Below, piece by piece: positions 34,533 to 52,197 of a DNA stretch of 64,000 nt (its first letter is position 1; every line of letters begins with the position of its first letter). The DNA lies in assembly GCA_963748035.1 (NCBI GenBank), contig CAVVHO010000005.1, positions 1,097,080 through 1,161,079 of the forward strand, given 5' to 3'. The position numbers were made by a program, and so were the translations under genes. The notes beneath the pieces were generated by a model. The model was not told the DNA's origin, did not search any database, and saw only the letters and a program-made list of their open reading frames with translations. Origin of the DNA: an uncultured Gemmatimonadales bacterium. GTDB lineage: Bacteria > Gemmatimonadota > Gemmatimonadetes > Gemmatimonadales > GWC2-71-9.

Positions 34533-35505
34533 TTACTGTGTCGGGCCGTCCCGGTCAACGGGGCGGGGATCGGCCTCCCGTTCCGGGGTGACCTCCGGCT
34601 CCTGTTGCACCACCCAGCCGTCATCCAGCGCGGCTCGGCGAGGACGATCCCTTTGCCGACGGTACCAAAGCAGTCCACCCAGGCTGAAGGCGATGACTCC
34701 CCACATTCCCCCTGCGGCCAGCCAAGTGAGGACGCTGTACCGACGCCGCAGAGCGTGCTGCCAGGTGTCCTCAAACCGATCGGGGGAGAGTCCCGTCGCG
34801 GATTCCAGCGCGCTATCAAAAGGCTCACCCGTTCGAGAGCCGGGCCAGAAGCGGTTCAAGCCCGCCCGGTGGCGGGCGCCGGGCGATTTCGGCCACCGCC
34901 GATGCGGCAAGGGCGTATGCGAGATCGGCCGCTGCGGCGGATCCCCTGAGCATCTCGTCCAGCTCGGCAAGGGTCGGAACCCTCCCTGAAGCGACCGCCA
35001 GGTTGAGCTCCAATCCTTCCATTCGGCCCAACTCGCCCGAGCCCCATGCCGCGTAGCCCTCATCAAACCATAGGGGGAGTCGGCCGGATACCGCCACCCT
35101 GAGGATCAGATGCCCCAGCTCATGCCGCAGAGTCTGATCGAGATCCGGCAGGTCAGCGCGGAGGAGGATGGTGCGTGCGCCGGGGAAGGCCACGCCCGCT
35201 CCCCAGCCTGGCGCCCGCCCATGCGAGAGCCTGGCGAGTGCGGCGGAATCATCGGCCAAGACCAGCAGGAAGGGAGGCGGTACCCGTCGACCCAGGCCGG
35301 GCCATTCCAACGGCCGCTCGGCGCGCTCCGCCAGCGCCACCGCGACACCCTGATGGGCCGGCGACGCCACTACCGTCACCTGCCCGACCTGCACGGCGCC
35401 AGGAGGCGTCTGCCAGCCGACCAGGAACAGGGTTAGGAAGAGCCGCGCGGGGGCTCCCCACCACCGGCGGTAAGGTCCAGCATTTCCTTGCAGCGCTTGC
35501 CCCAC
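34533..35505 (-). pseudogene. putative HExxH zinc metallopeptidase (MA-clan-like) with C-terminal TM; +1 frameshift at 34825-34831 as sequenced
   Basis: Upstream frame: ..LRHELGHLILR..LWFDEGYAAWGSGE..GLEPLLARLSNG*. The +1 frame continues EPFDSALESATGLSPDRFEDTWQH..TM MWGVIAFSLGGLLWY. Junction aac-ggg-tGA-g. The start is uncertain (GTG 35505 proposed; the track uses TTG 35577). Span = 3n+1. Confidence 0.5.
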
Positions 35506-36308
35506 GGATTGAACTTGTTGGCCTTGAAGCCATCGCTCCAGGTGGTCTTGGCGGCGTCCTTGTCGCCCAAGAACCAACTGGCCCGGCCCAGCTCGTAGTA
35601 CGCCTCGATCAGATTCGGCCCGAGCTGCACGGTCTTTTGGAAGAACGTCACCGCGTCTTCGAACATCTCCCTTTCCAGATAGACCAGGCCCAGATAATAG
35701 TGTGCGTACAGCGTGGCCTTCCGATCGTTGTCGAGGCGGATGGCCTTGGAAAGGTGTTCGATGGCCTCCCCGAAGATCCGCTTCTTGAGACAGATGTAGC
35801 CCACGTTGATCCGGGCGAGCGAATTGGCGGGTTCTTTCATCAGCACCCGGCTGAACGTTGCCAGCGCATCGTCGTAGTCCTCATGCAGCATCTGCGCCCA
35901 GCCCAGCAGCGACTGCGCCTGGGTCTCCGATGGCGCGAGGGACAGGGCCTTGGTGAGCGCCTGAATCGCTCCCGCGTAGTCGCCCAGCGAAATCAGACTC
36001 CAGCCCTTCTCGATGTAGGTCGACGCGCCGATGTGGTCCTGCTGCACGACGGGCCGGGCACCGGTGAACTGCGGGGCCTGAGCCGTCTCCGCGGTAGCCG
36101 CGACCTGCTTGTACCGCTCGACCAGTTCGCGAATCTCTTCCTTGACCTGAGTCAGCTCCGTGAGCGCCACGTCCACTTGTTTGAAGAAGGTGATGATCTC
36201 CCGCTTGACCGCCTCGCGCTCGGCCGACGAGGTCGCCCGGTCGAGTCGGCCCCCGATCTCCTGATACTGCTGGCGGCATCCCGCGATCAGCGGATCCAAG
36301 TTAGTCAT
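35433..36308 (-). CDS. coiled-coil + TPR protein (last Che-cluster gene)
   Basis: ATG 36308, 5 nt after the reconstructed cheW stop: MTNLDPLIAGCRQQYQEIGG..coiled coil..TPRs (GDYAGAIQALTKALSLAP, EDYDDALATFSRVLMKEP, FGEAIEHLSKAIRLD, FEDAVTFFQKTVQLGP). The track merges it with cheW into a 452-aa ORF because of the frameshift. Confidence 0.75.
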   Translation of the reverse strand: MTNLDPLIAGCRQQYQEIGGRLDRATSSAEREAVKREIITFFKQVDVALTELTQVKEEIRELVERYKQVAATAETAQAPQFTGARPVVQQDHIGASTYIEKGWSLISLGDYAGAIQALTKALSLAPSETQAQSLLGWAQMLHEDYDDALATFSRVLMKEPANSLARINVGYICLKKRIFGEAIEHLSKAIRLDNDRKATLYAHYYLGLVYLEREMFEDAVTFFQKTVQLGPNLIEAYYELGRASWFLGDKDAAKTTWSDGFKANKFNPWGKRCKEMLDLTAGGGEPPRGSS

Positions 36309-36313
36309 CTCAC

Positions 36314-36791
36314 TCACCGCAACGCCTCCGTGAGAGCCTGCCGCTCGGCGCTGGGCAGCAGCCGGGCGGCATTGAGAATCATGATGGTGCGGCCAGACCG
36401 ACTCGATGAGCCCGCCCGCGACGTCACCCGGCAAGCCCGCAACCTCACTCGTCGCCTGCCGGATGATCCGGGTATCGACCCGCAGCACTTCCGTTACCTG
36501 GTCCACTACCACGGCCAGTGGGAGCGCCTCGGCCACCAGCACCATGGTACGAGTTTCCTCTCGGCTGGCAGCGTCCAGACCCGTCCGCCGCCGCAGATCG
36601 AGCAGGGGGACCGTTCCGCCTCCGAAGGAGAGGAGCCCCTCAACGAACCGAGGACCCTTTGGCCACGGCGCAGGCTGCTCGTGTTTGAGAATCCGTTCAA
36701 CCTGGGTGATGCTGAAAGCGAGCTCCCGATCTCCGAGTCGGAACACCACGAACTGCAGCTCATCCCCAGTGGGCACCGCGCGCCGGCTCAT
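36314..36791 (-). pseudogene. cheW: chemotaxis coupling protein CheW (copy 2), +1 frameshift near 36391-36400 as sequenced
   Basis: ELQFVVFRLGDRELAFSITQVERIL..FVEGLLSFGGGTVPLLDLRRR..VVDQVTEVLRV..AGGLIES. The canonical C-terminus GRTIMILNAARLLPSAERQALTEALR* then appears only in the +1 frame (stop 36314-36316). Span 478 nt = 3n+1. Confidence 0.85.
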
Positions 36792-37861
36792 CGCCGCGGA
36801 ATCTCCCGGAGCAGCGCACCGACCCGTTCGGCGATCGCCCCGAGGGGCAGCACCAGGTCCGCTCCACCGGTCTCGAGCGCGGCGCCAGGCATGCCATAGA
36901 CCGTCGAGGTGCTCCGATCCTGGGCGACTCCTACTCCACCGGCGTCATGTACAGCCCGCAGCCCAGCCGCGCCGTCGCGGCCGAGGCCGGTGAGCACCAC
37001 TCCCAGCGCTGACGGTCCGAAGGCGGCGGCCACTGAATGGAACAGGGGATCCGCAGCCGGGCGTACGCCCCACACCGAGGCCTCCTGATCGAGTACAAGA
37101 CGGAGACCGCCCGGCGCCATCACGACGCGCATATGATAATCTCCGGGCGCGATGTAAGCGGTGTCCGCTTGCACTGTCATGCCGTCTTCCGCCTCCACCA
37201 CACGGTGTGCGCTCAAACCGTCCAACCGATCAGCCAGACTCCTGGTAAACCCGGCCGGCATATGCTGGACGACCAGCACACCCGCCTCAAGCCCGACCGG
37301 GAGACCCGGCACCAGTTCGGCAAGTGCCCGGGGACCGCCGGTGGACGCGGCGATGGCGACACAGCGACGGGCTTCGCCTTCAGGCCGTGCGAACGAGGCG
37401 TGGCCACCGCTGGTCCGCGGCCGGGCGAGGACCGGAACTCGGCGGACATCGGCGGCGAGTGCCGCGCGAAGCGCGGCCAGCAGCCGGGGCGCGATGCGGA
37501 GCGCCGAGACCCTTCCCTCGCTGTCGTCCTTGCGGACCAGCTCGACCGCGCCCAGCTCCAGCGCCCGAATCGCGCTGGGCGAGCCCGCGCCCGCGTGAGT
37601 GCTGACGACCACAATTGGGCGCGGTGACTCCGACATGATGTAGCCAATCGCGTCGAGCCCCCCCAGCTCCGGCATCTCCAGGTCCATCGTGATCACGTCG
37701 GGCTGCAGGGCGTGCACTTGCTCCAAGGCCTGTAGACCGTTCGAAGCGGACCCTACTACACGGAATTCGCCTGACCCCGCGACCAACTCGCTCACCAACC
37801 TGCGGAAGAAGGGACTGTCGTCCACCACCAGGACACCGGGAAGCTCAGAGGACTTCTTCAC
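36788..37861 (-). CDS. cheB: chemotaxis response regulator protein-glutamate methylesterase CheB
   Basis: REC: VLVVDDSPFFRRL..DVITMDLEMPELGG. Methylesterase: AIAASTGGPRAL..VVQHMPAGFT..GMPGAA. The GTG 37861 start is proposed (VKKSSELPGVLVVDD); the track start 37951 overlaps cheD heavily. Confidence 0.92.
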   Translation of the reverse strand: MKKSSELPGVLVVDDSPFFRRLVSELVAGSGEFRVVGSASNGLQALEQVHALQPDVITMDLEMPELGGLDAIGYIMSESPRPIVVVSTHAGAGSPSAIRALELGAVELVRKDDSEGRVSALRIAPRLLAALRAALAADVRRVPVLARPRTSGGHASFARPEGEARRCVAIAASTGGPRALAELVPGLPVGLEAGVLVVQHMPAGFTRSLADRLDGLSAHRVVEAEDGMTVQADTAYIAPGDYHMRVVMAPGGLRLVLDQEASVWGVRPAADPLFHSVAAAFGPSALGVVLTGLGRDGAAGLRAVHDAGGVGVAQDRSTSTVYGMPGAALETGGADLVLPLGAIAERVGALLREIPRR

Positions 37862-38330
37862 GCTTCCCGACCGTGCGGACAACGACGCGCCCATCCTCGA
37901 CGTAGAACCAGACTGACCGGCCGCAATAGCCTCCCACCGATTCCCCCACAATGGGTATGGCCAGCTGGTGCAGGGTTTCCCGAACCGCGATGACGTTGCG
38001 GTCTCCCATCTGGATCGAGCCCGCCGGAACCAGGTTCGCGAACATGCTTGCCCCGCCGACCAACCGCGCTATCAGCCGGCGTCGATCCGCTCCCAGCGCC
38101 AGCATCGCTTCCACCAGCGCCGGACACGCTGTTTGCGGAAAGCGACCGGGGTGATCCCCGCTGCGCGTGAGCGAGCACGAGGGCAGAAGGATGTGCGCCA
38201 ATCCGCCGACGGCGCTTCGCGGATCATGGAGGGCAATAGCCACACAACTGCCCAGACCGACCGTCGAGAGCACGGCATCACCGCTGGCCGACTGCAGGTC
38301 GGCAACCCGTACCAGAATCTCCGTCGGCAT
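37845..38330 (-). CDS. cheD: chemoreceptor glutamine deamidase CheD
   Basis: LSTVGLGSCVAIALHDP..GGLAHILLP..GGASMF..IGDRNV. Confidence 0.92.
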   Translation of the reverse strand: MPTEILVRVADLQSASGDAVLSTVGLGSCVAIALHDPRSAVGGLAHILLPSCSLTRSGDHPGRFPQTACPALVEAMLALGADRRRLIARLVGGASMFANLVPAGSIQMGDRNVIAVRETLHQLAIPIVGESVGGYCGRSVWFYVEDGRVVVRTVGKREEVL

Positions 38331-39154
38331 CAGGCTGCCTTCCGGTAGATCCGCTCCCGCGGCTCGACCAGATCAAATCTGGATCGGGCCCCACCCAGGA
38401 TGGTCTCGACCTTGCCCAACACCAGGATGCCATCCGGGGCCAGGGCGTCAGCGAACAGGTGCATCAGGCGTTCTTGGGTGGGTCGGTCGAAGTAGATCAC
38501 CACGTTGCGACACAGGATCAGATCGTACTGGCCGGCGGGGGCCGATTCGCTGGTCAGATCCATCCGCCGTACTTCGACCTGGGCACGCAGCGCGGGGAGC
38601 ACCTCGACTTCACCGTTCTCCACCGGCCGGCAGAACCGGGCGAGGACCGCGGGGTCTGCCTCAGAGAAGGCACGGAGGTCATAGCGGCCGCTGCGAGCTC
38701 GATCCAGCGAGGCGCGGTCGATGTCGGTGGCGTCCACGTGGCAGCGGTCGAGCCAGGTGGGATGGCCAAGGCGTTCCAGCACCATTGCGATGAGCATCAG
38801 GATCGTGTACGGCTCCTCGCCGGACGCGCAACCGGCACTCCAGATTCTGAGCCGGCCAGCGCGGGCGGTGAGCAACTCCGGCAAGAGATGGGCACCGAGC
38901 CAGGTCCAGGTCTCCGGGTTGCGGAAGAATTTCGTGACATTGATCGTGAGGGCATCGAGCAACAATTCCATTTCTTCGGGGCGCTGATCGAGGAGCCGTA
39001 CGTACTCCTCGTAGTTGTGGACCCCACAGGCGCGCATCCGTGCCGCGATACGCCGACGGAGACAGCGGTCCTTGTAGGCCCCCATGTCGAGCCCGTTGCG
39101 CCCCGCGATTCGCTCCGCGAGGGCGATGAACGCCGGGTCCTCCGTCGGGCTCAT
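38330..39154 (-). CDS. cheR: chemotaxis protein methyltransferase CheR
   Basis: TINVTKFFRNPETW..LRIWSAGCASGEEPY..ILCRNVVIYFD. Confidence 0.93.
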   Translation of the reverse strand: MSPTEDPAFIALAERIAGRNGLDMGAYKDRCLRRRIAARMRACGVHNYEEYVRLLDQRPEEMELLLDALTINVTKFFRNPETWTWLGAHLLPELLTARAGRLRIWSAGCASGEEPYTILMLIAMVLERLGHPTWLDRCHVDATDIDRASLDRARSGRYDLRAFSEADPAVLARFCRPVENGEVEVLPALRAQVEVRRMDLTSESAPAGQYDLILCRNVVIYFDRPTQERLMHLFADALAPDGILVLGKVETILGGARSRFDLVEPRERIYRKAA

Positions 39155-40770
39155 GCGGTGGCGTCCAAGGTGTCAAGATTGGCCCGCGCAAGTTGGTGGC
39201 CGGGATTCAACTCGGTCACCCGTTTCCAGCAGGCACGCGCCCGCTCCCGATCCCGACGCTTGTAGGCGATGTTGCCCATCTTGAAATAGAGATCGTCGCC
39301 CAGGTCCGGGCTGAGCTTGGCGGCGCGCTCGTAGGCCTCGAAGGCATCGTCGTAACGACCAGCGCGGTAAAGCAGGTCACCCAGATTCTTCGAGACCTGC
39401 GCGAGGGTGGGGCTCTCCGCGAGGGCCGTCCGGAGCATCATCTCCGCACTGGCCAGATCGCCACCGAGTTCCTGCAGTACTGCGAGATTGTTGCGAAGGG
39501 GCGCGCTGTTAGGATGGGCGCCCACCCCGTTTTGCGCGATCTCCATGGACGCCATCGCATCGCCCTCGCAGGCCGTGGCCAGCGCCATGGCCCAGTACCA
39601 GGTAGGGGGCCGCGGCCGATCGCCAAAGAGCTCCCCGGCCCGTTGCAGCCGGTTTAGCGCCACCTCGGTATCGTTACGCTTGAGCGCAGCAACACCCCAA
39701 CCAATCATGATGCGGGCATCGTCGCGGGCCTTGGAGGCCGCCTCCGCGTAAGCCGCCTCGGCTTCGGGCAGCCGCCCGAGTTGCTCGAACGCGAAGGCGA
39801 GATTGTGCAACGCGCTGGCCCGCCGGCCACCTCGCTCCACCGCATGCTGCAGCACATCCACGGCCTCGAGCCAACGGGCCTGTTTCAGGGCGATCAGGCC
39901 AAGGAAGTAATGCGCCCCCGGTTCGTCCGGGCGAAGATCAGCTACCCGGCGGAACTCCCGCTGGGCTTCGTCCAGCATTCCAGTCTTGAAGAACGCGATA
40001 CCGAGGTTCTGGTGTTCGTGGACCCGGGTGTCGTTGGCGCGCGGCGTAGCGACCTTGGCGGAAGTGCCTACCCTGCGCACGTACCCCGCGCTGATCAGAC
40101 CGAACAGCGCGGCGGCCGCGTCAAACTCGACCAGCGAGCACTCGTCGATGACCTGACGCACATCCCGAGTTCCGTCGAGCAGGGGCAGGATCCTCCGCTG
40201 GGCAGCAGAGAGTCCGACATCCTCACCGGGCGCATGCCCCGGGTCCACCGAGAAGATCAGATCGAAACTGGGGATCTTCTTTTCGATCTGGCTCCACTCG
40301 TCCACCCGCCGCGCGCCTTCCAGCAACAGACTCTCGGGATTGATCGAGACCTTGTATACCTGCGGTTCTGGCTTGACACCGGGCTCGAAGTTGAATGTGC
40401 CCTGGGTCCAGGCGAACAGATGATAGACGGCCTCTTCGATTTGCAGGAACAACAGGCGCTCGAGCTGTTCCCGGCCCACGAAGCCGAGCTCGATCAGGAT
40501 GTCCCCCAACCGGCGTTCGCGGTGGACTTCTTGAAGGTGAATGCCTTCGTCGAGTTGTTCGTTGGTGATCAGCTGGTTCTTGCGGAGGAGATCGCCGATG
40601 CGGTCACGACGATTGACGATCGAGGCGTAGCATATCCTGCCTTCTTCGAAGTAGATGTAGCCGAAGTTCTGTCGGTCAGCGACCGCCAGACAGCCGGTCT
40701 TTTTCCCCAGGGCCAACAGCTGGAGTACGTCGGTGAGGCTGGCTTCCTTCAGACTGCCCTTGATCGCCAT
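39151..40770 (-). CDS. PATAN (DUF4388) domain + TPR-repeat protein
   Basis: MAIKGSLKEASLTDVLQLLALGKKTGCLAVA..YIYFEEGRICYA. Helical insertion IGDLLRKNQLITNEQLDEG..RLGDILIELGFVGREQLERLL. ..FNFEPG..LLLEGARRVDEW. The C-terminal half has at least 6 TPR-like units. Confidence 0.8.
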   Translation of the reverse strand: MAIKGSLKEASLTDVLQLLALGKKTGCLAVADRQNFGYIYFEEGRICYASIVNRRDRIGDLLRKNQLITNEQLDEGIHLQEVHRERRLGDILIELGFVGREQLERLLFLQIEEAVYHLFAWTQGTFNFEPGVKPEPQVYKVSINPESLLLEGARRVDEWSQIEKKIPSFDLIFSVDPGHAPGEDVGLSAAQRRILPLLDGTRDVRQVIDECSLVEFDAAAALFGLISAGYVRRVGTSAKVATPRANDTRVHEHQNLGIAFFKTGMLDEAQREFRRVADLRPDEPGAHYFLGLIALKQARWLEAVDVLQHAVERGGRRASALHNLAFAFEQLGRLPEAEAAYAEAASKARDDARIMIGWGVAALKRNDTEVALNRLQRAGELFGDRPRPPTWYWAMALATACEGDAMASMEIAQNGVGAHPNSAPLRNNLAVLQELGGDLASAEMMLRTALAESPTLAQVSKNLGDLLYRAGRYDDAFEAYERAAKLSPDLGDDLYFKMGNIAYKRRDRERARACWKRVTELNPGHQLARANLDTLDATA

Positions 40771-41910: not shown

Positions 41911-42014
41911 CGCCGAGGAAATCTCCGACAGGAAGGAGCTGAACTCGTCGGTCGTGAGGCTGGCGTGGGAGGAGGGTTCCTTCGCGGGGCGCTCGGGTTC
42001 CGCGGGGCCGTCCG

Positions 42015-44202: not shown

Positions 44203-45029
44203 CGGACCCGCTCCAGCCAGGCGCGTGCGGCCTTCGCGGCCCGCTCCGCGAAGAACGTAAGCTGACCTGCCGGCAAGCCGGCATCCATGGCCGCGAGCAG
44301 ACTTGTATCGTTGGTGGGATTCAGCAGGCAGGCGCTGACGTCGCCGCCTTCCACGGTGAGGTGGGTCCATTCTCCCAACTCAAGGAGGCGAGCTGCCCGC
44401 CCCGCCTCCCGAGTCGCGGCCGCGAGAATGGCCGCGGCCTCGTCGCTCACATTACGACTCTCCCGGTCGGCGAGCCCGCCTCCGAGACGAAGCCCATCCT
44501 GATCCACGAGCAGCAGCCGGTCCCGGGCGCCTTCCAGCCCAGCGAAGGGATCACCGGCGTTTACCGTTGCCGCCCGCGCTTCCGCAATGTCAGGGGGGGG
44601 CGCCTCGGGCAGCGGCGTGTCCCAGATTTCCTGTCCGCCAGCCACACGTTCTACCGCGCGGCGAAGCCCGGCATCCCCTGGATCCAGCTGGGCGGCCATC
44701 CGCAGGTGATAGAGCGCGTGCTCAGGCTCCCCGGCCCGGAAATACAGGAAGCCGATGCCCTTGTGCGCCCCGAGGTGATTCGGGGCAAGCCGGAGCACCG
44801 TGTCCCACTCATCGAATGCGCTGGCGTAGTCGTAGCGATCGGTGAGGATTCTGGCGTACAGGTCGTGGGCATCCGGGAGGTGCGGATAGCGCGACAGCCC
44901 GCCGAGCGAGACCTTGAGCGCCGCGTCCAACTGGGCGCGTTGTCGCAGGGCCTCTCCCAGGCGCAGGAAGACCAGGCTCGACGGGTCGGCAGCGTATTGC
45001 GCCGATAGCGCCCGGATGTCCTCAGTCAC
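44199..45029 (-). CDS. TPR + C-terminal Roadblock/LC7-like fusion protein
   Basis: N-terminal TPRs (FLRLGEALRQRAQLDAALKV..; HLGAHKGIGFLYFRAGEPEHALYHLRMAAQLDP). C-terminus RLLLVDQDGLRLGG..SDEAAAILAAATREAGRAARLLELGEWTHLTVEGGDVSACLL..LLAAMDAGLPAGQL is Roadblock-like. Confidence 0.7.
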   Translation of the reverse strand: MTEDIRALSAQYAADPSSLVFLRLGEALRQRAQLDAALKVSLGGLSRYPHLPDAHDLYARILTDRYDYASAFDEWDTVLRLAPNHLGAHKGIGFLYFRAGEPEHALYHLRMAAQLDPGDAGLRRAVERVAGGQEIWDTPLPEAPPPDIAEARAATVNAGDPFAGLEGARDRLLLVDQDGLRLGGGLADRESRNVSDEAAAILAAATREAGRAARLLELGEWTHLTVEGGDVSACLLNPTNDTSLLAAMDAGLPAGQLTFFAERAAKAARAWLERVR

Positions 45030-46170
45030 GGGAACCCCGGACCGCCAGGTCCAACGTCAGTGCAGCCTGCCGCACGCGCTCAATGACCGTCTGGTGGGCA
45101 TCCTCCTCGGGGGCCTTGCCCGAGAGCCGCCGCCATTGCTCCCAGACCTGCGCGGCCTCGCGGAATCTCCCGACCGCGGACAGCGCCAGCCCAAACAAGC
45201 GGTGGGCGGGTCCATTCTGCGGATCCAGTTGCACCGCCTGCCACAGCGCTTCCGCCGCCTCCGCAGGATGTCCGGCGGCGAGGAGCGCACGACCGTACGC
45301 CAGATGCGCAAGCGGCTGCTGCGGGTGGCTCGCGACCGCCTGCTCCGCGGCCTGACGAGCGGAGTCCGGATCCCCAGCACCGAGCAGCTGGTCCACCTCA
45401 CCGAGAAGGATCGGCAGGTCCGCGCCCCCGATCGCCTCCATGGCGCGGCGTTGCGGATCCTCCAGCAGGACGATGCCCGCCGTGGCGAGGCCGAACAGCG
45501 TCCGGGCCACCTCAAACTCAGGGCGGCCAAGCACGACGGCCAAGTCCCTAACCGAGCGTTCACCGTCGATGACCGCGAGTACCTCCCACTCGACCGGGAG
45601 GAGGTCCAGTGGCCCGGCGGTGTCAATCACCGGCGCGAGTCGCGGTACCAGCCCGAGATGGGTGATCTTCTTTTCGATGCGGGACCACTCGTCGGTGCGG
45701 CGGGCGGCTTCCATCAGGAGAAGTCCAGTGGGAACTCGAGTCTCCGCTTCCATTGGCCAGTCGGCCTGTTTCCCGTCCTCGAAGGCGAAGTATCCCTCGG
45801 ACCACCCCACCAGCTCGAACACCACTTCCTCGATTTGCAGGCGCACGACCCGGTTGAGGTCCCGCGCCACGATGAGTCCCTGCGCCACCAGGATCTCACC
45901 CAGACGACGGGAATCCCCCGCAGCCTGCAGGGCCCGGGCGCGCATCAAGTCCTGCTCCCCAACTCGGCCTGCCCGCACAAGCAGGCGACCGAGCGGGTGG
46001 GGATTGCTGCGGATCTCGGCACCGACCACAACCCCATCTTCGAAGAACACCGTACCGGCATTCTGACGGAGATCGGATGCCACCCGCAGCGTTCCTGTCT
46101 TCCGACTCAAATCCAGCAGCTGGAAGACATCATGGATGCTGAGCTCCTTGAGCGGCCCCTCGATGGCCAT
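45022..46170 (-). CDS. PATAN (DUF4388) domain + TPR protein (paralog of 39151-40770)
   Basis: MAIEGPLKELSIHDVFQLLDLSRKTGTLRVAS..VFFEDGVVVGA..LGRLLVRAGRVGEQDL..RLGEILVAQGLIVARDLNRVV..YFAFEDG..LLMEAARRTDEWSRIEKKI. C-terminal TPRs. Confidence 0.8.
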   Translation of the reverse strand: MAIEGPLKELSIHDVFQLLDLSRKTGTLRVASDLRQNAGTVFFEDGVVVGAEIRSNPHPLGRLLVRAGRVGEQDLMRARALQAAGDSRRLGEILVAQGLIVARDLNRVVRLQIEEVVFELVGWSEGYFAFEDGKQADWPMEAETRVPTGLLLMEAARRTDEWSRIEKKITHLGLVPRLAPVIDTAGPLDLLPVEWEVLAVIDGERSVRDLAVVLGRPEFEVARTLFGLATAGIVLLEDPQRRAMEAIGGADLPILLGEVDQLLGAGDPDSARQAAEQAVASHPQQPLAHLAYGRALLAAGHPAEAAEALWQAVQLDPQNGPAHRLFGLALSAVGRFREAAQVWEQWRRLSGKAPEEDAHQTVIERVRQAALTLDLAVRGSRD

Positions 46171-46173
46171 GAC

Positions 46174-48861
46174 TCAGGCCGCTCCTGCAAAAATGTGCGC
46201 CAAGTCCCGGGCGGATCGCGCGTGGGCCCGGGCGGCTTGGGCGTACGGCCCGGACGGTTCCACCATGACGACCCGCTCCCAAGCCTGGACTGCCTCGCCA
46301 TAGCGGCGAAGCCGCGCCAGCGCGATGCCGCGATGGAACAACCCCGCATCGTGGTCCGGGTCGAACTTGAGCACCAGGTCGATCGCTTCGAGGGCGCGGT
46401 CGGCGCGGGCGTCGTCCAGAAGCGCTCGGGCGAGCAGCAGCAGCGCGTCGAGATCCCACGGCTCGAGCAACAGCAGGTCCACGACATATTCGACCGCCGC
46501 CGCGGGGGAGTCGGTGCGGCGGATCAGGTCGCCCAGCGCCAGGGCGGCATCGAGGTAGGTGGGAAGGAGGTCGAGCGCGCGTTGGTAGGCAACCCGGGCT
46601 CCGACCCAGTTCTCTCGGTACTCCTCGAGCCGACCCAGATCACGCCAGACCTGCGGCACCGCCGGGTCCAACTGCAATGCGGCGTGACACGCCTCGACCG
46701 CGCCTTCCAGGTCGCCGAGTTGCTGGGAGATCCCTGCCTCCAGCTGCAGCAGGTCGGCACGCCCCGGTTCGATGGCCCGCGCCTGACGCAGCGCGAGGCG
46801 AGCCTTGTCCGGGAGTCCCGCGGCGAGCCGTACGCGGGCCGCCGCAAGCAGCGCCTCCACATCGCCCGGAGTCAGCAGGAGCAGTTGTTCAGCCTGGTCC
46901 ACCGCATCCATGCCGCGACCAAGCGCGAGCAGCGCACGAACCTCCCCCAGGATGGCACGCGGCTGCTGCGGTAGCAGCGAGAGCGCAGTCCGGAAGCGGT
47001 CCAGTGCTTCCCCGTGCAGCCCGCGCCGGGCGAAGACCTCCCCCAGCAAAGTGGTTGCCCGGCCGGGCTCGGTCCCCAGAGCAAGCGCGCGCTCGATCTG
47101 TACCGTGGCGTGCTCCAGGAAGCCCTTCTGGATATAGTCGGTTGCCAGCGCCAGCGGGTCTTCCGCCGACTGAATCGCGCCCCGGTCCTCTGGCTGCAGC
47201 TCGTCGAAGATCCGGTCCAGCAGACGTTCGTCGAAATGGAAGTCTTCACCCACAGCGTCCGCGGTGATATCGGCGGAGATCTCGGGTGCGACGGTGATCT
47301 CGGGGTGCTCGTATTGCAGGTCGATCGTGAGCGCAAACTTCTGGGGAACGTAGAACGGTTCCAGCTCAAGAGCGCGCTTGGTGGCGCGAAGCGCACCGTC
47401 GAAATCGCCGAGGTGACTCAGCGTGAAGCTGAGGTTGTAGTGGGCGGAGGCGTTCGCCGGATCGGCCTCGACGGCACGGGAGAACGCGTGCTTCGCATCC
47501 TCGAAACGCTTGAGCTCCACCAGGACCAGGCCGACCCCATTCCAGGCCACAGCGTTCTGGGGGTGCTCGGCCAACACCTGGCGATACGCCTCCAGCGAAA
47601 GCTGTAACCGGCGCCGTTGGAACAAGGCGAGCGCCAGGTTGAGCCGGGCCGCGGTGAGGGTGGGGTTCAGCCGAAGCGCTTCCTGGAAGGAGTCCAAGGC
47701 CTGATCGCCGTCCGGCAACTGGCTCTGCAACACACCGAGGTTATTCCACCCGAGGGCGTACGCCGGGTCAGCGGCGAGGGCCTGCTCGCAGGCGCTCACG
47801 GCTTCATCCCGGCGGCCGGACTGCTGCAGACAGACACCGCGCTCATTCCACAGCTTGGGCGAGCCTGGCTCCTCGGCGAGAAGCGCATCGTAGAGTTCGA
47901 GCGCCGCGGCCAGATCGCGACGGAGCAGATGAACCTCCGCCATGGCCTGACGTACTAGTCTCGGATCTTCGCTGGCCTCGAGCGCCATGCGGTACTCCCG
48001 CAACGCCTCGACGTAGTAGCCCTTCTGTCGAAACGCGAGGCCGAGATTGTAGTGGGCGAGATTCGCGCCCTCCGCGACCGCTGGCCGCGGGGACGCGGGA
48101 CGCCCACCGGGGAGTCGTGCGAGATGGCCCAGGCCCTCGTATCGGGTCAGACTGAGATTGCTCTGTGCCCGGGCGAGTGTTGGATTGAGCTGGGTCGCAC
48201 GGGTAGACGCGGCCCGGGCCCGCTCATGCTCACCCAGATCGCCGTAGACGAAGGCGAGCAGGTAGTAGGCATCGGCATTGTCCGGGTTGCGCTGGACGGC
48301 GGATTCCAGCGCCTGCCGCGCTTGATCGGAGAGGCCGCGATTGTAGAGCGCCTCACCGTAGTGGAAGAGTGTGATCGAGCTCTGCGGATCCAGCTCCTTG
48401 GCACGCTCGAAGGCGGCGGTCGCCATCTCCAGGTTGCCGCGCCCTCGCTCGGCCAGTCCGAGCTGCAGCAGGGCTGCCACGTCGTCCGGCTTGCGGGCGA
48501 GGAGCAGCTGGAACTCGGTGACAGCTTCGTCCCACTGTCCCAGGGCAGCGCTGGTTCGCCCGAGTTCCCAGCGAGCCGCCGCATCATATGGCTCACGACG
48601 CAGGCGCTCGCGCAGCTCTGCCACCCGGCGGTCGTAGTAGCCGGTGGCGTGGTAGGCGATTTCGAGGTTTTCCTTGGCGACCTGCATGCGCGAGTCGAGT
48701 TCCAAGGCACGGAGAAACTCCTCGATCGCTTCGGGGACGAGGCCCTTCTGATAGTAGAGAACGCCGAGGTTGTTGTGCGCCCCCGCATCGGCGGAATCGA
48801 TGCGGCGGGCGAACGAGCGAAGGACCGTGAGATCGCGTTCCGAGAGGGCCGACCCGGTCAC
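46174..48861 (-). CDS. large TPR-repeat protein (about 895 aa)
   Basis: GTG 48861, 7 nt after the cheC stop. At least 20 TPR units throughout (e.g. AHNNLGVLYYQKGLVPEAIEEFLRALELD, ALLQLGLAERGRGNLEMATAAFERAKELDP, AWNGVGLVLVELKRFEDAKHAFSRAVEADP). Confidence 0.8.
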   Translation of the reverse strand: MTGSALSERDLTVLRSFARRIDSADAGAHNNLGVLYYQKGLVPEAIEEFLRALELDSRMQVAKENLEIAYHATGYYDRRVAELRERLRREPYDAAARWELGRTSAALGQWDEAVTEFQLLLARKPDDVAALLQLGLAERGRGNLEMATAAFERAKELDPQSSITLFHYGEALYNRGLSDQARQALESAVQRNPDNADAYYLLAFVYGDLGEHERARAASTRATQLNPTLARAQSNLSLTRYEGLGHLARLPGGRPASPRPAVAEGANLAHYNLGLAFRQKGYYVEALREYRMALEASEDPRLVRQAMAEVHLLRRDLAAALELYDALLAEEPGSPKLWNERGVCLQQSGRRDEAVSACEQALAADPAYALGWNNLGVLQSQLPDGDQALDSFQEALRLNPTLTAARLNLALALFQRRRLQLSLEAYRQVLAEHPQNAVAWNGVGLVLVELKRFEDAKHAFSRAVEADPANASAHYNLSFTLSHLGDFDGALRATKRALELEPFYVPQKFALTIDLQYEHPEITVAPEISADITADAVGEDFHFDERLLDRIFDELQPEDRGAIQSAEDPLALATDYIQKGFLEHATVQIERALALGTEPGRATTLLGEVFARRGLHGEALDRFRTALSLLPQQPRAILGEVRALLALGRGMDAVDQAEQLLLLTPGDVEALLAAARVRLAAGLPDKARLALRQARAIEPGRADLLQLEAGISQQLGDLEGAVEACHAALQLDPAVPQVWRDLGRLEEYRENWVGARVAYQRALDLLPTYLDAALALGDLIRRTDSPAAAVEYVVDLLLLEPWDLDALLLLARALLDDARADRALEAIDLVLKFDPDHDAGLFHRGIALARLRRYGEAVQAWERVVMVEPSGPYAQAARAHARSARDLAHIFAGAA

Positions 48862-48868
48862 GGGATCC

Positions 48869-49489
48869 TCAGATGAGCCGGATGGCGTCGAAGATTGCCC
48901 GGAGGCTCGCGAGATCGGGGAGCAGCAGGAAGTGCCCGCGCAGCTTGAGTTCCGGATCGTCGAACAGGAACCGGGTTTCCACGCAGAACACATAGTCCCG
49001 GTCGTACCCGAAGTTCATATAGATCGAGGTCAGCACCGCGCCGATCAGATCAATGGCGAGGCTTGGGACGGAGGGCACCAGCATCATCCCCATGAAATCG
49101 GAGAGCGCGTTCATGTAAGCGCTCGAAAGGATGTTGCCGACTTCCTTGAGTCCCGACTGCTCCATCTCACCGAACTCTTTGGTAGTCCCCTTCGGACGGC
49201 GCAGCAGGATGTCGCAGAGAGTGCGGGCGCAGTCCTCGGGGAACAGCACCAGCGTCCGCCCCGTGAGATCGCCCATCATGTGCATCAGCACTGCGGCGAC
49301 CACCTCGTCGGCCTTCCCGAGGATCTCCGGGACCTCCTCCAACCGGGTGATGTTCACCTCGGGGACCGAGATCATGATCCGGCGATTGGTCAGCTGCGAC
49401 AGTGCGGTCGCGGCGTGGCCGGCCCCGATGTTGGCCACCTCGCGCAGCGCGTCGCGCTGCAGCGCGTGGAGTTCCCTCACGTCGTCCAT
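48869..49489 (-). CDS. cheC: CheC-family CheY-P phosphatase
   Basis: Duplicated motif: QRDALREVANIGAGHAATALSQL and EQSGLKEVGNILSSAYMNALSDF (D/S-x3-E-x2-N). Confidence 0.88.
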   Translation of the reverse strand: MDDVRELHALQRDALREVANIGAGHAATALSQLTNRRIMISVPEVNITRLEEVPEILGKADEVVAAVLMHMMGDLTGRTLVLFPEDCARTLCDILLRRPKGTTKEFGEMEQSGLKEVGNILSSAYMNALSDFMGMMLVPSVPSLAIDLIGAVLTSIYMNFGYDRDYVFCVETRFLFDDPELKLRGHFLLLPDLASLRAIFDAIRLI

Positions 49490-49499
49490 GCGGGCCTCC

Positions 49500-51356
49500 T
49501 CAGACCAGCGCCGCGGGGTCTACAATCAATGCGGGGGCCCCGTCACCCAGGATCGTCGCCCCACTGAAGACAGGGAGCGTTCCCTTTGGAGCATCGAAGG
49601 GCTCTACCACGATCTCCTGCTGCCCCATGAGCATATCCACCACCAGGGCGGCCCGACGGTCCCCTACTTCGAGGATCACGGCCGGCTGGCGCCCCGGTGG
49701 GCGCGGCCCTTCGACTCCAAGCCGCTCACGCAGTCGCACCGTCGGCACCAGTTCCTCGCGGAGAATCAGCGCTTCATTCCCGTTGAGGGACGCCAGCCGG
49801 TCGGGCCGGAACTCGACCGTCTCTGCGATTCCCGAAAGCGGAATGGCGTACTGCTCATCGCCGACCCGCGCCAGCAGCGCCCGGATAATGGCGAGCGTCA
49901 TGGGAAGCCGCAGGGTGAAGACACTGCCTTCTCCCGCCGTCGAGGCGAGCTCGATCGAGCCTCCGAGCACCCGCAATCGGGACATGGCGGCATCCATCCC
50001 CATTCCCCGCCCGGACACATCAGTCACCCGCTTGGCCGTCGAAAAACCCGGCCGACTCAACACCCGGAGTAGCATGTCGTCCGCCAGCTCCGTCGTCCCG
50101 GCGGGGACCAGTGCATCTCGAATCGCGCGAGCCAACACCCGTTGCCGGTCTATGCCCGCGCCATCGTCACTCACCCGGATCACAACGGTGGTCCGATCGC
50201 CGGCGGCGCTCAACCGGATGACGCCTTCTTCCGGCTTCCTGGCCCGCCGCCGATCGGATGGCGGCTCGATGCCGTGATCCACGGCGTTGCGGAGGATATG
50301 CAGCAGCGGCTCACCGACTTCGTCCAGAATCGCGCGGTCGAGCTGCGTGTCCTCTCCTTCCACTTCGAACCGAACCCGCCGACCGAGTTGGCGAGCGAGA
50401 TCCCGCACCACGCGCGGAAACCGATCGAATACCTGCCAGACCGGGGTCAACCGGACCTGCATCACCTCGCCGTACAGGTCGTTCGCAATGCGGCTCATCC
50501 GCGTCGTGACCGCCTGCAATTCCGGATCGCCGCGATCGGCAAGCGTCCCCAATCGCCCCTTCGCGACCACCAGCTCACCGACCAGGTTCATGATCGCGTC
50601 GAGCCGGCGGACATCAATCCGGATCTGCCGCGCCCGGCCGCCGATCTCGCCGGCCCGCTCCGCCTGCGGTTCGCCGAATCCGACGGCCGCGACTTCGCCA
50701 ACCGCAACCAGGGCAGCCGCGACCGCGGCATCGTCCAACGGCGAGGCCAGCTGGAAACTGAACTTGCCGTCGAATCCATCCTGCTCGAGAATGCCGATCG
50801 GCGGTTGCACCGCCGTCACCCGCCCGAGCGACTCCGCCTTCCTCAGCGCCAGGACCGCGCGGGCCCCCCGCATCGCGGCGCCGGCACGGATCGTGACCTG
50901 AACCTCGCGACCCACACTGCCATCGCCGGCCTCGCTCCGCTCGGTGGGCGTCGGCACGGGCGACTGCTTGCCCCCCGAACGCGCCTCCGAGGCCTCGTCG
51001 AGCTCGTGGAGCAGCGTCGAGTAGTCGAGCCGGCTATCTCCGCCCTCATTCGCCTGAGGAGCACCACGTTCGAGGGCATCTACCACGCGGAGGAACAGGT
51101 CGATCAGCTCCCGGCCTGACGCGGGGGCTTCCCGAAGCTGGCCCAGCAGCGTCTCGCTGCGATGCGCCAGTTCCGTCAGGTTGCTGTAGCCCATCGCCGC
51201 TGCCATGCCCTTGAAGCTGTGCATGGCGCGGAACAGTACCAGGACCGGCTCCGCCGCTGCGGGGTTGCGCTCCCAGTCGAGCAACGACTGGACACAGGTC
51301 GCAAGCTGCTCCCGACTCTCGGTGGCAAAGAGGGCGGCGTACCGAGAGAGGTCCAT
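49500..51356 (-). CDS. cheA: chemotaxis histidine kinase CheA
   Basis: Hpt FRAMHSFKGMAAAMG; LLHILRNAVDHGIE (N box); VSDDGAGID; SGRGMGMD; C-terminal CheW-like domain (YAIPLSGIAETVEF..). The ATG at 51356 is 7 nt after the cheY stop. Confidence 0.95.
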   Translation of the reverse strand: MDLSRYAALFATESREQLATCVQSLLDWERNPAAAEPVLVLFRAMHSFKGMAAAMGYSNLTELAHRSETLLGQLREAPASGRELIDLFLRVVDALERGAPQANEGGDSRLDYSTLLHELDEASEARSGGKQSPVPTPTERSEAGDGSVGREVQVTIRAGAAMRGARAVLALRKAESLGRVTAVQPPIGILEQDGFDGKFSFQLASPLDDAAVAAALVAVGEVAAVGFGEPQAERAGEIGGRARQIRIDVRRLDAIMNLVGELVVAKGRLGTLADRGDPELQAVTTRMSRIANDLYGEVMQVRLTPVWQVFDRFPRVVRDLARQLGRRVRFEVEGEDTQLDRAILDEVGEPLLHILRNAVDHGIEPPSDRRRARKPEEGVIRLSAAGDRTTVVIRVSDDGAGIDRQRVLARAIRDALVPAGTTELADDMLLRVLSRPGFSTAKRVTDVSGRGMGMDAAMSRLRVLGGSIELASTAGEGSVFTLRLPMTLAIIRALLARVGDEQYAIPLSGIAETVEFRPDRLASLNGNEALILREELVPTVRLRERLGVEGPRPPGRQPAVILEVGDRRAALVVDMLMGQQEIVVEPFDAPKGTLPVFSGATILGDGAPALIVDPAALV

Positions 51357-51363
51357 CCCGGCC

Positions 51364-51726
51364 TCAGCCGAGCACGCGCTGAACCGCTTCGAGAACCCGG
51401 GAAGGCTGGAAGGGTTTGACGACAAAATCCTTGGCGCCAGCCTGTATCGCCTCCACCACCAGCGCCTGCTGACCCATCGCGCTACACATCAGAATCCGGG
51501 CTGCGGGATCGTCCTTGCAGATCTCCCGTACCGCCTCGATGCCCCCCATATCCGGCATGACAATGTCCATGGTGACCAGGTCGGGTTTGAGCTGACGGTA
51601 TTTCTCGACCGCTTCACGCCCCGTCTCCGCTTCGCCGACAACTTCGAAACCAGCCTGCGCAAGGATGTCCGAGATCATGGTGCGCATGAAGATCGCATCG
51701 TCGCAGACCAGTACCGTGTGGCTCAC
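51364..51726 (-). CDS. cheY: chemotaxis response regulator CheY
   Basis: VLVCDDAIFMR..DLVTMDIVMPDMGG..MCSAMG..FVVKPF. D-D-D-T/S-K pattern. Confidence 0.93.
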   Translation of the reverse strand: MSHTVLVCDDAIFMRTMISDILAQAGFEVVGEAETGREAVEKYRQLKPDLVTMDIVMPDMGGIEAVREICKDDPAARILMCSAMGQQALVVEAIQAGAKDFVVKPFQPSRVLEAVQRVLG

Positions 51727-51762
51727 GCAGTCCTCCGTGGTACAGTTGCGGTCAGGGTCGGG

Positions 51763-52197
51763 TCAACCCAGCACCGGTGCGAACAGCGCTTCCGTGTTCA
51801 GTACTGCGAATGCCCGACCGCCATGATGTCCCTGCGCCCGGACCAATCGCGCGTCCAGGCCCGGCGGTGCTCCCCCTTCGGTGAGGTCCTCAGACCGTAC
51901 GTCGATGAGATCCAGAACCTCATCGATGGAAAGCCCGTAGGAACGGCCTCCCTGTTCCACAACCAGAATGGACCCGGCCTCGACCCCACTATCGGTCAGT
52001 CCGACCCCGCGCCTGCCGTCTAATACCGTGAGGAGTGTACCCCGCAGGTTGATCAGACCGGCCACGATCCGATCACTGCCCGGAATCCGGGTCGGACGCT
52101 CCGCATTGGTGACTTCACGCACCACTGTGGCGGGGATGGCCCAGAGGACCGACCCCAGCCGAAACAGCACCAATCTAACAGCCCCGGAATCACCCAT
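51763..52197 (-). CDS. cheW: chemotaxis coupling protein CheW (copy 1)
   Basis: ATG 52197: MGDSGAVRLVLFRLGSVLWAIPATVVREV..IVAGLINLRGTLLTVLD..ILVVEQGGRSYGLSIDEVLDLI..AFAVLNTEALF. Overlaps the reconstructed rluD stop (ATGGGTGA). Confidence 0.9.
   Translation of the reverse strand: MGDSGAVRLVLFRLGSVLWAIPATVVREVTNAERPTRIPGSDRIVAGLINLRGTLLTVLDGRRGVGLTDSGVEAGSILVVEQGGRSYGLSIDEVLDLIDVRSEDLTEGGAPPGLDARLVRAQGHHGGRAFAVLNTEALFAPVLG

Follow-up and report, generated by a model that had tools for sequence, protein, structure and literature searches.

Gene content of the supercluster

We analyzed a 64,000-nt stretch of DNA (hereafter, the window) from contig CAVVHO010000005.1 of an uncultured Gemmatimonadales bacterium. 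At positions 35433-52197 its minus strand carries an unbroken chain of open reading frames (ORFs) that comprises chemotaxis (che) genes and genes for tetratricopeptide repeat (TPR) proteins, PATAN-domain proteins, Roadblock/LC7 proteins, the Ras-like GTPase MglA, and DnaA-like ATPase modules. We interpret this supercluster, with moderate confidence, as a phylum-conserved, operon-like module in which an F1-type chemosensory phosphorelay is wired via TPR/PATAN scaffolds to a Group-1 MglA polarity switch. The chain had been outlined in a first-pass annotation of the window and was borne out by our analysis: its domain labels were checked by Pfam, NCBIfam, or PDB searches, and every one of them was verified, including that of MglA (E 4e-71 to Myxococcus xanthus MglA).

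The gene order from 5' to 3' is cheW1, cheY, cheA, cheC, a long all-TPR gene, a first PATAN-TPR gene, a TPR-Roadblock gene, two further Roadblock genes, mglA, a tandem DnaA-like gene, a second PATAN-TPR gene, cheR, cheD, cheB, cheW2, and a coiled-coil TPR gene. Successive junctions measure 36, 7, 10, 7, 3, -8, -4, -4, 3, -1, 0, -4, -1, -17, and -4 nt, negative values being overlaps, so that the observed range is -17 to +36 nt. The chain had been counted as eighteen genes; 17 are present in the window once the DnaA-like pair is merged into one gene, and 18 in most relatives, owing to an additional cheW after cheB. The window has a G+C content of 62-69% in 2-kb windows.

Relatives of the supercluster were collected using the family-specific middle domain of the tandem DnaA-like ATPase as an anchor. 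This domain was found in 467 species-representative genomes, and the best 80 loci were fetched (loci are given L numbers below).

MglA and three Roadblock proteins

The mglA gene (42779-43384) encodes a 201-aa Group-1 Ras-like GTPase. Its match to Myxococcus xanthus MglA (PDB 5ymx) spans the full length, and Thermus thermophilus MglA (3t12) matches at E 2e-65. In the alignment with 5ymx the P-loop GxxxxGKT, the stretch TDRTLFFDF, which we take to hold the intrinsic Arg finger, and the stretch YTVPGQ are identical, and the protein carries the switch-2 motif TxxGQ instead of DxxGQ. By these sequence features the window protein is a bona fide Group-1 MglA. The matches listed in the MglA search are all close relatives from metagenome-assembled genomes (MAGs).

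Directly upstream of mglA lies a gene for a 155-aa MglB-like Roadblock protein (43388-43855). Its only PDB matches are to M. xanthus MglB (6h5b, 6izw, and 6hjm; E 5e-6), which it resembles in length, including a C-terminal extension, and its NCBIfam match to MglB is weak. The window protein has no Pfam match, and its L045 ortholog scores above the Robl_LC7 cutoff. We regard it as the probable cognate MglB-type GTPase-activating protein (GAP) of MglA, an assignment that would make the gene order mglB-mglA the same as in Myxococcus. The name mglB had previously been given to the next gene upstream (43852-44202), which encodes a 116-aa Roadblock/LC7 protein (Pfam Robl_LC7 E 1.7e-13). This label is better transferred to the 155-aa protein, formerly termed Roadblock-2: the best PDB matches of the 116-aa protein are generic (7yh1 and 7f8m), with M. 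xanthus MglB reached at E 0.02 only, and it is more likely an MglC-like paralog. A third protein of 276 aa (44199-45029) combines TPR repeats (Pfam TPR_2) with a C-terminal Roadblock/LC7 domain that is weakly matched in the window (Robl_LC7 E 1e-4); the Robl_LC7 match recurred in all five orthologs tested, in one of them above the gathering cutoff. All three Roadblock assignments hold in orthologs.

Chemosensory proteins

The che genes form two blocks on either side of the GTPase genes. The upstream block opens with cheW1 (51763-52197; Pfam CheW E 2e-22), the first gene of the cluster, whose product has 144 aa if translation starts at the ATG at 52197; this start is uncertain, another candidate ATG being located at 52299. 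It is followed by cheY (51364-51726; Pfam Response_reg E 3e-31), encoding a single-domain response regulator, and by cheA (49500-51356), whose product has the architecture P1(Hpt)-P2-P3-P4-P5 without a receiver domain (Pfam Hpt, P2, H-kinase_dim, HATPase_c, and CheW). The block ends with cheC (48869-49489; Pfam CheC E 6e-22, NCBIfam CheC_Thtogales E 5e-49), encoding a CheY-P phosphatase. The downstream block starts with the receptor methyltransferase gene cheR (38330-39154; Pfam CheR E 1.4e-46 and CheR_N), the receptor deamidase gene cheD (37845-38330; Pfam CheD E 1.2e-26, NCBIfam CheD models including CheD_Thtga, E 8e-38), and the receptor methylesterase gene cheB (36788-37861), which encodes a receiver (REC) domain and a CheB_methylest domain (Pfam E 1e-61 and 4e-20). 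It ends with cheW2 (36314-36791), which is frameshifted in the window. Most relatives encode an additional CheW of 141-143 aa between cheB and cheW2 (e.g., 15149-15580 in L067 and 16510-16935 in L083) and thus have three CheW proteins in the cluster; this extra gene is missing from the window and from L003, its closest relative.

In the Wuichet and Zhulin scheme, the F1 class of chemosensory systems is characterized by a CheA with a P2 domain together with CheW, CheY, CheC, CheD, CheR, and CheB, and its closest relatives are found in Firmicutes, Thermotogae, and Archaea. All of these proteins, including a CheA with P2, are encoded in the cluster. The best NCBIfam models are CheA_Halo (E 1e-120), CheY_Halo, CheC_Thtogales, and CheD_Thtga; in the PDB, CheY matches Thermotoga maritima CheY (1tmy) at E 2e-51, and archaeal CheY proteins match as well. 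The che genes therefore look like members of the F1 class, an assignment that reflects nearest matches rather than class-defining hidden Markov models or the receptor class 44H.

No signaling domain of a methyl-accepting chemotaxis protein (MCP) was detected by tblastn with the Tsr signaling domain, either in the 64-kb window or in the 80 loci with their 10-kb flanks. The search returned just two weak and spurious matches, at ~26.4-26.6 kb, inside an ORF (26170-27543) that we take to be a Mur ligase of the division and cell wall (dcw) cluster. The system had earlier been proposed to be receptor independent. CheW, CheR, CheB, and CheD act on or couple to methyl-accepting receptors, and since the cluster encodes two or three CheW proteins along with CheR, CheB, and CheD, we conclude instead that the pathway is receptor dependent and that its receptors are simply encoded elsewhere. 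A Frz-type system was considered and rejected on three grounds: the CheA has no REC domain, the sole response regulators are the single-domain CheY and CheB, and there is no MCP in the window or the 80 loci.

TPR and PATAN scaffolds

Between cheC and the Roadblock genes lie the gene for an 895-aa protein (TPR895; 46174-48861), matched by many TPR families over its whole length, and the gene for PATAN-TPR protein 1 (45022-46170; 382 aa), in which TPR repeats follow a PATAN domain (also DUF4388 or PatA_N; Pfam DUF4388 E 1.5e-30). TPR895 is found in every locus that reaches its position and is probably cytoplasmic, as its N-terminus shows by eye no obvious resemblance to a signal peptide. PATAN-TPR protein 2 (39151-40770; 539 aa; Pfam DUF4388 E 8e-40 plus TPR) is encoded just ahead of cheR. 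A PatA-type response regulator was rejected as an identity for these proteins, given the TPR repeats after PATAN and the lack of a Response_reg match in either of them.

Both PATAN domains carry an insert with two 24-residue motifs of the MshEN type, 5 residues apart. The MshEN motif, RLGxx(L/I/V)(L/I/V)xxG(L/I/V)(L/I/V)xxxxLxxxLxxQ, occurs as two 24-residue copies about 5 residues apart and binds cyclic di-GMP (c-di-GMP). Against the NCBIfam model NF053729 (c-di-GMP_motif), PATAN-TPR2 scored 44.9 bits, above the cutoff of 38, and PATAN-TPR1 scored 33.7 bits, below it. In PATAN-TPR2 the motifs are readable at residues 57-80 and 87-110. Conservation was judged by alignment, a regular expression being too brittle across orthologs; the motif residues are kept in 74 orthologs of PATAN-TPR2 and also in those of PATAN-TPR1. 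The PATAN-TPR scaffolds are thus probably c-di-GMP readers.

The tight chain ends with a gene for a coiled-coil and TPR protein of ~291 aa (35433-36308; start ATG at 36308), which shows the highest median identity to its orthologs (78%) among the TPR proteins. It is followed by a constant neighbor, a Peptidase_MA_2 gene (34825-35394; Pfam E 6e-8), which is present after the coiled-coil TPR gene in all loci reaching that far, che-less ones included, at a median gap of 62 nt. The peptidase gene is a possible member of the functional unit.

A tandem DnaA-domain-III ATPase

The gene downstream of mglA (40771-42779) encodes two AAA+ modules related to domain III of the replication initiator DnaA (Pfam Bac_DnaA E 6e-53 and 1e-41; Bacillus subtilis DnaA domain III in the PDB, E 3e-59 and 4e-42). 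AAA+ module 1 (42015-42779) is followed by a disordered linker, a helical middle domain (~41600-41980), and AAA+ module 2 with a conserved C-terminal tail (40771-41600). A full-length ortholog, with 87% identity to the window in its second half, was modeled with AlphaFold (AF2); the model had a mean predicted local distance difference test (pLDDT) value of 82 and showed two confident AAA+ modules, the helical middle domain, and a disordered linker and tail. The best Foldseek match of this model was 8bv3, B. subtilis DnaA domain III (44% identity, root-mean-square deviation 1.7 Å, target TM-score 0.93). Walker A, Walker B, sensor I, the box VII arginine, and sensor II are kept in both modules, more strongly in module 1. 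The middle domain is represented by only 252 cluster representatives among 1.84 billion proteins; in the fold search with the whole model, all matches were to DnaA or to generic double-ring AAA+ proteins (p97), and the search was uninformative on this domain. The C-terminus (window 40771-40830, minus strand) has a near-invariant SREKMVWDWPD..DRL.E sequence, with pLDDT <50 before the last helix, and looks like a short linear docking motif for a partner.

The tandem proteins are labeled in databases as 'chromosomal replication initiator protein DnaA'. Bac_DnaA (domain III) was matched twice, and DnaA_N and Bac_DnaA_C were absent, in Pfam searches of the window ORFs and of the full-length protein P0291. 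The two modules scored 268.6 and 208.3 bits on TIGR00362 (DnaA), whose cutoff is 343.9, and 86.7 and 84 bits on TIGR03420 (Hda), whose cutoff is 194.8. No clamp-binding motif was seen in the tandem ATPase, whose N-terminus (MTRLNPRY) opens straight into domain-III sequence, and no Hda structure was among the PDB matches of the modules at E<1e-10. A replication initiator DnaA was accordingly rejected, since domains I and IV are missing and the TIGR00362 cutoff is not reached, and so was Hda/HdaA, given the two modules, the TIGR03420 scores, and the missing clamp-binding motif. Because the domain and cutoff tests for DnaA fail, the DnaA label of the tandem proteins is wrong.

One base is shared between the ATG of the tandem gene and the mglA stop codon, and the ATG of PATAN-TPR2 abuts the stop codon of the tandem gene. 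The gene is never lost, che-less variants of the cluster included, and the tandem ATPase is a core member of the module.

Many short-read contigs stop within the tandem gene, exactly at the second Walker A sequence ...GKTHLL (P0003, P0004, P0005, and others labeled 'partial'). The near-identical nucleotide words shared by the two AAA+ modules likely break assembly graphs at this point, and the contig ends explain the many truncated ~430-aa tandem copies in databases.

Frame breaks in the window and corrected gene models

The first-pass annotation had listed two dnaA-like genes, encoding two AAA+ ATPases, and a 104-nt gap between them. As sequenced, the locus does contain two ORFs (42015-42779 and 40771-41910) with an apparent gap of this length. 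In relatives, the reading frame runs from AAA+ module 1 via a low-complexity linker and a domain with the pattern DEFxxFLSE...WRxR...WEGEGY...FRDP into module 2; both halves lie in a single stop-to-stop frame in 77 of 81 loci, the 63 clean products measure 642-685 aa, and an independent gene call by the Joint Genome Institute (JGI) gives a single 643-aa protein with two Bac_DnaA domains. The two ORFs are thus one gene, ancestrally single and split in the window, and the apparent gap is coding sequence. The frame is lost at a run of five C residues (42031-42035), where adding one C restores ...SPPVIYTL...; the simplest explanation of the break is a homopolymer sequencing error.

A second break affects cheW2. 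One extra base in the TCGG at 36398-36401 fuses it to the coiled-coil TPR gene in a single 452-aa ORF (35433-36791), in which Pfam CheW covers only profile positions 1-105 of 138 and TPR families match residues 250-420. The missing CheW2 C-terminus, 'GRTIMILNAARLL...', sits in the next frame; the restored frame ends at a stop codon (36314-36316) five bases ahead of the ATG of the TPR gene. In L003, the nearest short-read relative, a full CheW of 156 aa precedes an independent TPR gene, and relatives carry the coiled-coil TPR gene as an ORF of its own, also by the JGI gene call. The first-pass annotation had listed cheW and the coiled-coil TPR gene separately; in the window as sequenced, the 1-nt frameshift joins them.

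The two single-base disruptions lie less than 6 kb apart. Elsewhere, the tandem gene is clearly split in four loci (L034, L064, L078, and L080), all of them 'MFD' MAG contigs with long-read-style names. This confinement suggests that both breaks in the window are homopolymer or indel errors of the assembly and not pseudogenes.

Conservation and modularity across Gemmatimonadota

Using tblastn with the window proteins, we found the same gene order in essentially all 80 loci, as far as the contigs reach, and the shared order extends to the downstream Peptidase_MA_2 gene and a secreted TPR protein. Orthologs are thus not scattered; the order is Gemmatimonadota wide and greatly exceeds what chance would produce. 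The best 80 of the 467 genomes belong to Gemmatimonadota except for two loci labeled otherwise, and among the matches listed all named relatives are Gemmatimonad*, save the same two. These loci, L030 and L060, contain a complete Gemmatimonadota-type cluster and are labeled as Acidimicrobiia and Solirubrobacterales MAGs, respectively; L060 equals L062 (labeled Gemmatimonadales) in length and match coordinates. Both labels are probably due to binning contamination.

The order is kept in ~80 species-level genomes despite ortholog identities of just 42-60% for several proteins. Median identities to the window proteins are 92% for CheY, 86% for MglA, 86% for CheC, and 78% for the coiled-coil TPR protein, compared to 61% for CheA, 55% for PATAN-TPR1, 53% for the TPR-Roadblock protein, and 51% for CheW2. 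CheY, MglA, and CheC are thus far more constrained than CheA or the scaffolds, a pattern expected of hub proteins with several partners. Median junctions across loci, from cheY to the last TPR gene, range from -17 to +11 nt. Since these conserved junctions overlap or span 11 nt or less (e.g., 7 nt for cheC-TPR, -4 nt for PATAN2-cheR, and 11 nt for cheW2-TPR), there is no room for promoters at most boundaries. A scan for promoter- and terminator-like sites inside the cluster found no excess over shuffled sequence. Junction lengths suggest that the genes from cheW1 to the coiled-coil TPR gene may form a single transcription unit.

The che blocks are present in most but not all loci. The cheR-cheD-cheB-cheW block occurs in 59 of the 64 loci spanning the PATAN2-to-TPR junction and is absent in the other 5; cheA and cheC occur in 47 of the 48 loci with enough upstream sequence. 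In four Gemmatimonadales loci (L037, L041, L042, and L045) the core is located at the same chromosomal site without cheR-cheD-cheB-cheW, and in L045, the only one of the four with enough upstream sequence, cheW-cheY-cheA-cheC is absent as well. The L045 order is ileS, dksA-like, lspA, rluD, TPR895 ... PATAN2, coiled-coil TPR, peptidase, TPR, rsmH, and ftsI, with no che gene at either che-block position. In a neighbor-joining tree of the tandem ATPase, L037, L041, and L045 form one tight clade, and the sister locus L038 and the 58 other loci of the tree have che genes. The simplest history would be that one lineage lost both che blocks together, and such a joint loss indicates that the two blocks form one functional input. 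The core remains intact in this clade, which argues that the TPR/PATAN/Roadblock/MglA/DnaA-like core is a self-sufficient effector module, to which Che is a detachable input. The GTPase module had been described as nested in a Che operon; che blocks do lie on both sides of it, and the sub-clade that keeps the whole core without che does not fit this description.

A more distant relative, L002 (contig_19078, 3.3 Mb), is a frameshift-rich long-read contig with a similar but shorter, degraded cluster and was used only qualitatively. Its GTPase is ~41% identical to the window MglA, the cheRDBW block is missing, and the flanking genes match those of the window, with dksA-like, lspA, and rluD on the upstream side and rsmH and ftsI on the downstream side.

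These data bear on the possibility that the cluster is no functional unit, with two che operons and an MglA operon adjacent in a slowly rearranging housekeeping region and each working independently. The relatives do all come from one phylum, their flanking housekeeping genes are syntenic too, and the promoter and terminator scans are neutral as to internal signals. Such an accident of adjacency is nevertheless very improbable, given junctions that overlap or span 11 nt or less across genomes at 42-60% protein identity, the loss of both che blocks together, and independent grounds to expect coupling, namely the known PATAN/REC fusions and the Frz-MglA link.

The che-less clade also bears on a second alternative, in which the cluster is an ordinary flagellar (F1) chemotaxis operon, CheY~P acts on FliM and not on the core, and the core places chemoreceptor arrays or the flagellum at the pole in the manner of ParC/ParP. 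CheY is close to the flagellar CheY of T. maritima (E 2e-51), and CheA, CheC, and CheD best match halophile or Thermotoga models; Gemmatimonas aurantiaca, the type species, is flagellated; and nesting of NTPase positioning genes in che operons has a precedent in ParC/ParP, which are encoded inside Vibrio che operons and place arrays. However, the core persists at the same locus in a clade without any cluster che gene, so that its job cannot be only the positioning of Che arrays. There is also no ParA-like ATPase in the cluster, and the PATAN and MglA precedents favor pili over flagella. We consider this alternative unlikely. ParC/ParP was likewise rejected as an identity for the core, neither family being present and the core persisting in the che-less clade.

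Genomic surroundings

Upstream of the supercluster and on the same strand are ftsH, folP, a TMEM260-like glycosyltransferase gene, a DivIVA gene, and genes for purine nucleoside phosphorylase, ileS, a DksA-type zinc finger protein, lspA, and an rluD-like protein. The spacer between the rluD-like gene and cheW1 measures 123 nt and contains a terminator-like hairpin at 52219-52234. The gene for the DivIVA-domain protein (58217-58732, minus strand) lies 6 kb upstream of the cluster and belongs to the run of same-strand genes that extends from ftsH to ileS-lspA-rluD. Downstream, the order is Peptidase_MA_2, tRNA-Val (34193-34268, minus strand), a secreted 582-aa TPR protein, tRNA-Asp (32237-32311, minus strand), rsmH, ftsL, and ftsI. 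The size and order of the ORFs past ftsI suggest that they are the rest of the dcw division and cell-wall cluster. No mraZ-like ORF was noticed upstream of rsmH, in the course of work that included no search aimed at mraZ. The other window genes that match a family are housekeeping genes, and the same flanking genes are found in L045 and L002. With DivIVA upstream and dcw downstream, the supercluster is situated within a cell-division and envelope neighborhood.

This location recalls a third alternative, a cell-cycle or cell-polarity controller instead of a motility device, in which the tandem ATPase would co-oligomerize with, cap, or titrate DnaA (or bind single-stranded DNA), thereby linking an MglA switch that receives Che and c-di-GMP signals to the initiation of replication, to division, or to budding. 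Both modules are close relatives of DnaA domain III, much closer to DnaA than to Hda, and their ATPase motifs are conserved; the ATG of the gene overlaps the mglA stop by one base, and the gene is never lost even where che is; the cluster always lies between the ileS-lspA-rluD group and dcw, with DivIVA upstream in the window; and Gemmatimonas divides by budding as well as by fission. On the other hand, the ATPase has neither the DNA-binding domain IV, nor domain I, nor a clamp-binding motif, the dcw adjacency may be merely inherited genome order, and all other components have motility precedents. To our knowledge, no MglA system controls replication. We therefore rate this alternative as doubtful.

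An equally speculative proposal concerns the protein itself: the tandem ATPase could be a kind of AAA+ switch not recognized before, which arose as a copy of the replication initiator and became indispensable as the partner of a Ras-like polarity GTPase. At its strongest, the proposal has the ATPase physically couple a chemosensory and c-di-GMP-controlled MglA switch to DnaA and to replication initiation or division, in a phylum that divides by budding. We find it improbable; if true, the replication initiator would for the first time be seen to receive input from a bacterial small-GTPase pathway.

A model for Che control of MglA

Four independent sets of precedents link the components of the supercluster and point to a Che-to-MglA polarity switch. 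MglA and MglB of Myxococcus are under the control of Frz signaling (PMC3441718, PMC4546325), and Guzzo et al. proposed that such control arose by recruitment of MglAB to a chemosensory system (PMC4546325). In cyanobacterial PatA-type regulators, PATAN is fused to a CheY-like receiver and serves as an output domain that binds PilB1/PilC (bioRxiv 10.1101/2021.06.11.447907); this fusion provides a 'Rosetta-stone' case for a stand-alone CheY acting on PATAN-TPR proteins. The TPR proteins Bd2492 and SgmX are bound by MglA, which cooperates with a c-di-GMP receptor at the pole that bears pili (PMC3983030, PMC7519303). PATAN genes have been noted in the vicinity of mglA/mglB in several phyla; one example is G. 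aurantiaca GAU_1409, with the entry 'PATAN>MglA>-PATAN>' (PMC4316618, Table S2).

The model that we favor for the supercluster, chemosensory control of MglA, builds on the observed content and order of the genes and their conservation across species, on the domain identities and the intact catalytic motifs, and on the modular loss of che; we infer its protein-protein steps and its output as follows. Receptors encoded elsewhere would control CheA through CheW and would be adapted by CheR, CheB, and CheD. The single-domain CheY would be phosphorylated by CheA and dephosphorylated by CheC. CheY~P may then act on the PATAN-TPR and TPR scaffolds, which through their MshEN-type motifs are probably c-di-GMP readers too. 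The scaffolds would bias the GTP/GDP cycle of MglA, itself presumably set by the MglB-like GAP and two further Roadblock proteins. Finally, MglA-GTP and the TPR proteins might fix the position or activity of a polar machine, which by precedent would most likely be a type IV pilus motor, with the tandem DnaA-domain-III ATPase as a putative core ATP-dependent partner. A Che-driven polarity or motility switch had already been suggested in the first-pass annotation; by analogy with Frz (PMC3441718, PMC4546325) its Che-to-MglA link is plausible, whereas its receptor-independent part is not retained.

Several points weigh against this model. The che genes appear to be of the flagellar or archaellar F1 type and not of the Tfp (type IV pili) or ACF (alternative cellular functions) classes, through which chemosensory systems usually act on pili or polarity. 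The 64-kb window and the 20-kb loci showed no pilus, flagellar, or receptor genes, and no nucleotide-exchange factor (GEF) of the RomR/RomX type was found in the cluster. Because its neighbors are housekeeping and cell-division genes (ileS-lspA-rluD upstream and dcw downstream), part of the synteny could be inherited and not selected. The model also gives the tandem ATPase no specific role.

Comparison with known systems

One of the closest known systems is the Frz-MglA/MglB/RomR system of M. xanthus. Both have a Group-1 MglA whose catalytic signature is the same, with a gene for an MglB-type Roadblock protein, the known or probable GAP, immediately before mglA; in both, a Che-type kinase pathway is placed upstream of the GTPase switch, and extra Roadblock paralogs (cf. 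MglC) and TPR effectors (cf. SgmX) are present. In Myxococcus, however, frz and mglBA are at separate loci (PMC4316618), whereas the Gemmatimonadota cluster is one packed unit. Its che genes are F1-like, with a stand-alone CheY, CheC, and CheD, and the cluster encodes no CheA-REC hybrid (FrzE), FrzZ, or cytoplasmic FrzCD; RomR/RomX is also missing from it, and PATAN-TPR proteins and the tandem DnaA-like ATPase are added.

The cyanobacterial Tax/Pix systems with PatA-type regulators resemble the cluster in that PATAN, with a helical 'alpha-clip' insert, is tied to a Che pathway, and PATAN in Synechocystis binds the pilus motor proteins PilB1/PilC (bioRxiv 10.1101/2021.06.11.447907). They differ in that PATAN in Gemmatimonadota is fused to TPR and CheY is separate, and in that the Tax/Pix clusters are without MglA, Roadblock, or DnaA-like genes. 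The MglA-Bd2492-RomR-CdgA hub of Bdellovibrio likewise links MglA to TPR scaffolds and c-di-GMP sensing at the type IV pilus pole (PMC3983030). Its components are scattered, mglB is lost, and there are no Che genes and no DnaA-like ATPase; the c-di-GMP input passes through a separate receptor, whereas Gemmatimonadota would use MshEN-type motifs inside PATAN.

The actinobacterial conservon (histidine kinase CvnA, Roadblock protein CvnB, CvnC, and MglA-like GTPase CvnD) is also an operon that joins a sensor kinase pathway, a Roadblock protein, and an MglA-family GTPase (PMC4316618). Its MglA is of Group 2, its kinase is a membrane histidine kinase in place of CheA/CheW/CheY, a DUF742 protein is present, and TPR, PATAN, and AAA+ genes are absent; the conservon was rejected as an identity for the cluster. 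Vibrio ParC/ParP shares the placement of an NTPase-based module between che genes and the presence of extra CheW-domain proteins. ParC is a ParA-type ATPase and ParP a CheW-domain protein, and neither family occurs in the Gemmatimonadota cluster, whose core survives without che. Finally, the tandem ATPase has the DnaA domain-III fold and motifs in common with DnaA, Hda, HdaA, and HdaB and, like Hda, is without domain IV; it differs from them in having two domain-III modules per chain, a family-specific helical domain, scores far under the curated cutoffs, and a signaling-cluster context instead of a replication context.

In the literature searched, no description of the composite cluster or of a tandem DnaA-III protein was found, only the general remark on MglA-PATAN neighborhoods and the Hda/HdaB family, in line with the initial impression that the composite is an undescribed system. 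Four features appear to be new: the direct physical linkage of an apparently F1-type Che pathway to mglBA, PATAN-TPR proteins that carry c-di-GMP motifs, a double ATPase derived from DnaA, and conservation of the cluster across the phylum. In kind, the cluster is a variant of known Che-controlled GTPase polarity systems.

Implications for Gemmatimonadota

The mislabeled tandem ATPase, present in hundreds of genomes, could mislead origin and dnaA predictions in Gemmatimonadota. More broadly, Myxococcus is the only case in which signaling from a chemosensory system to MglA has been elucidated, and there the genes are dispersed and the linking proteins had to be identified one by one. In Gemmatimonadota the recruitment of MglAB would be written into one conserved cluster, which thereby names its own candidate adaptors: the PATAN-TPR, TPR, and three Roadblock proteins. 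To the control of MglA by Che it adds a probable input from c-di-GMP, and it offers a compact parts list for polarity control in an abundant, poorly studied soil phylum.

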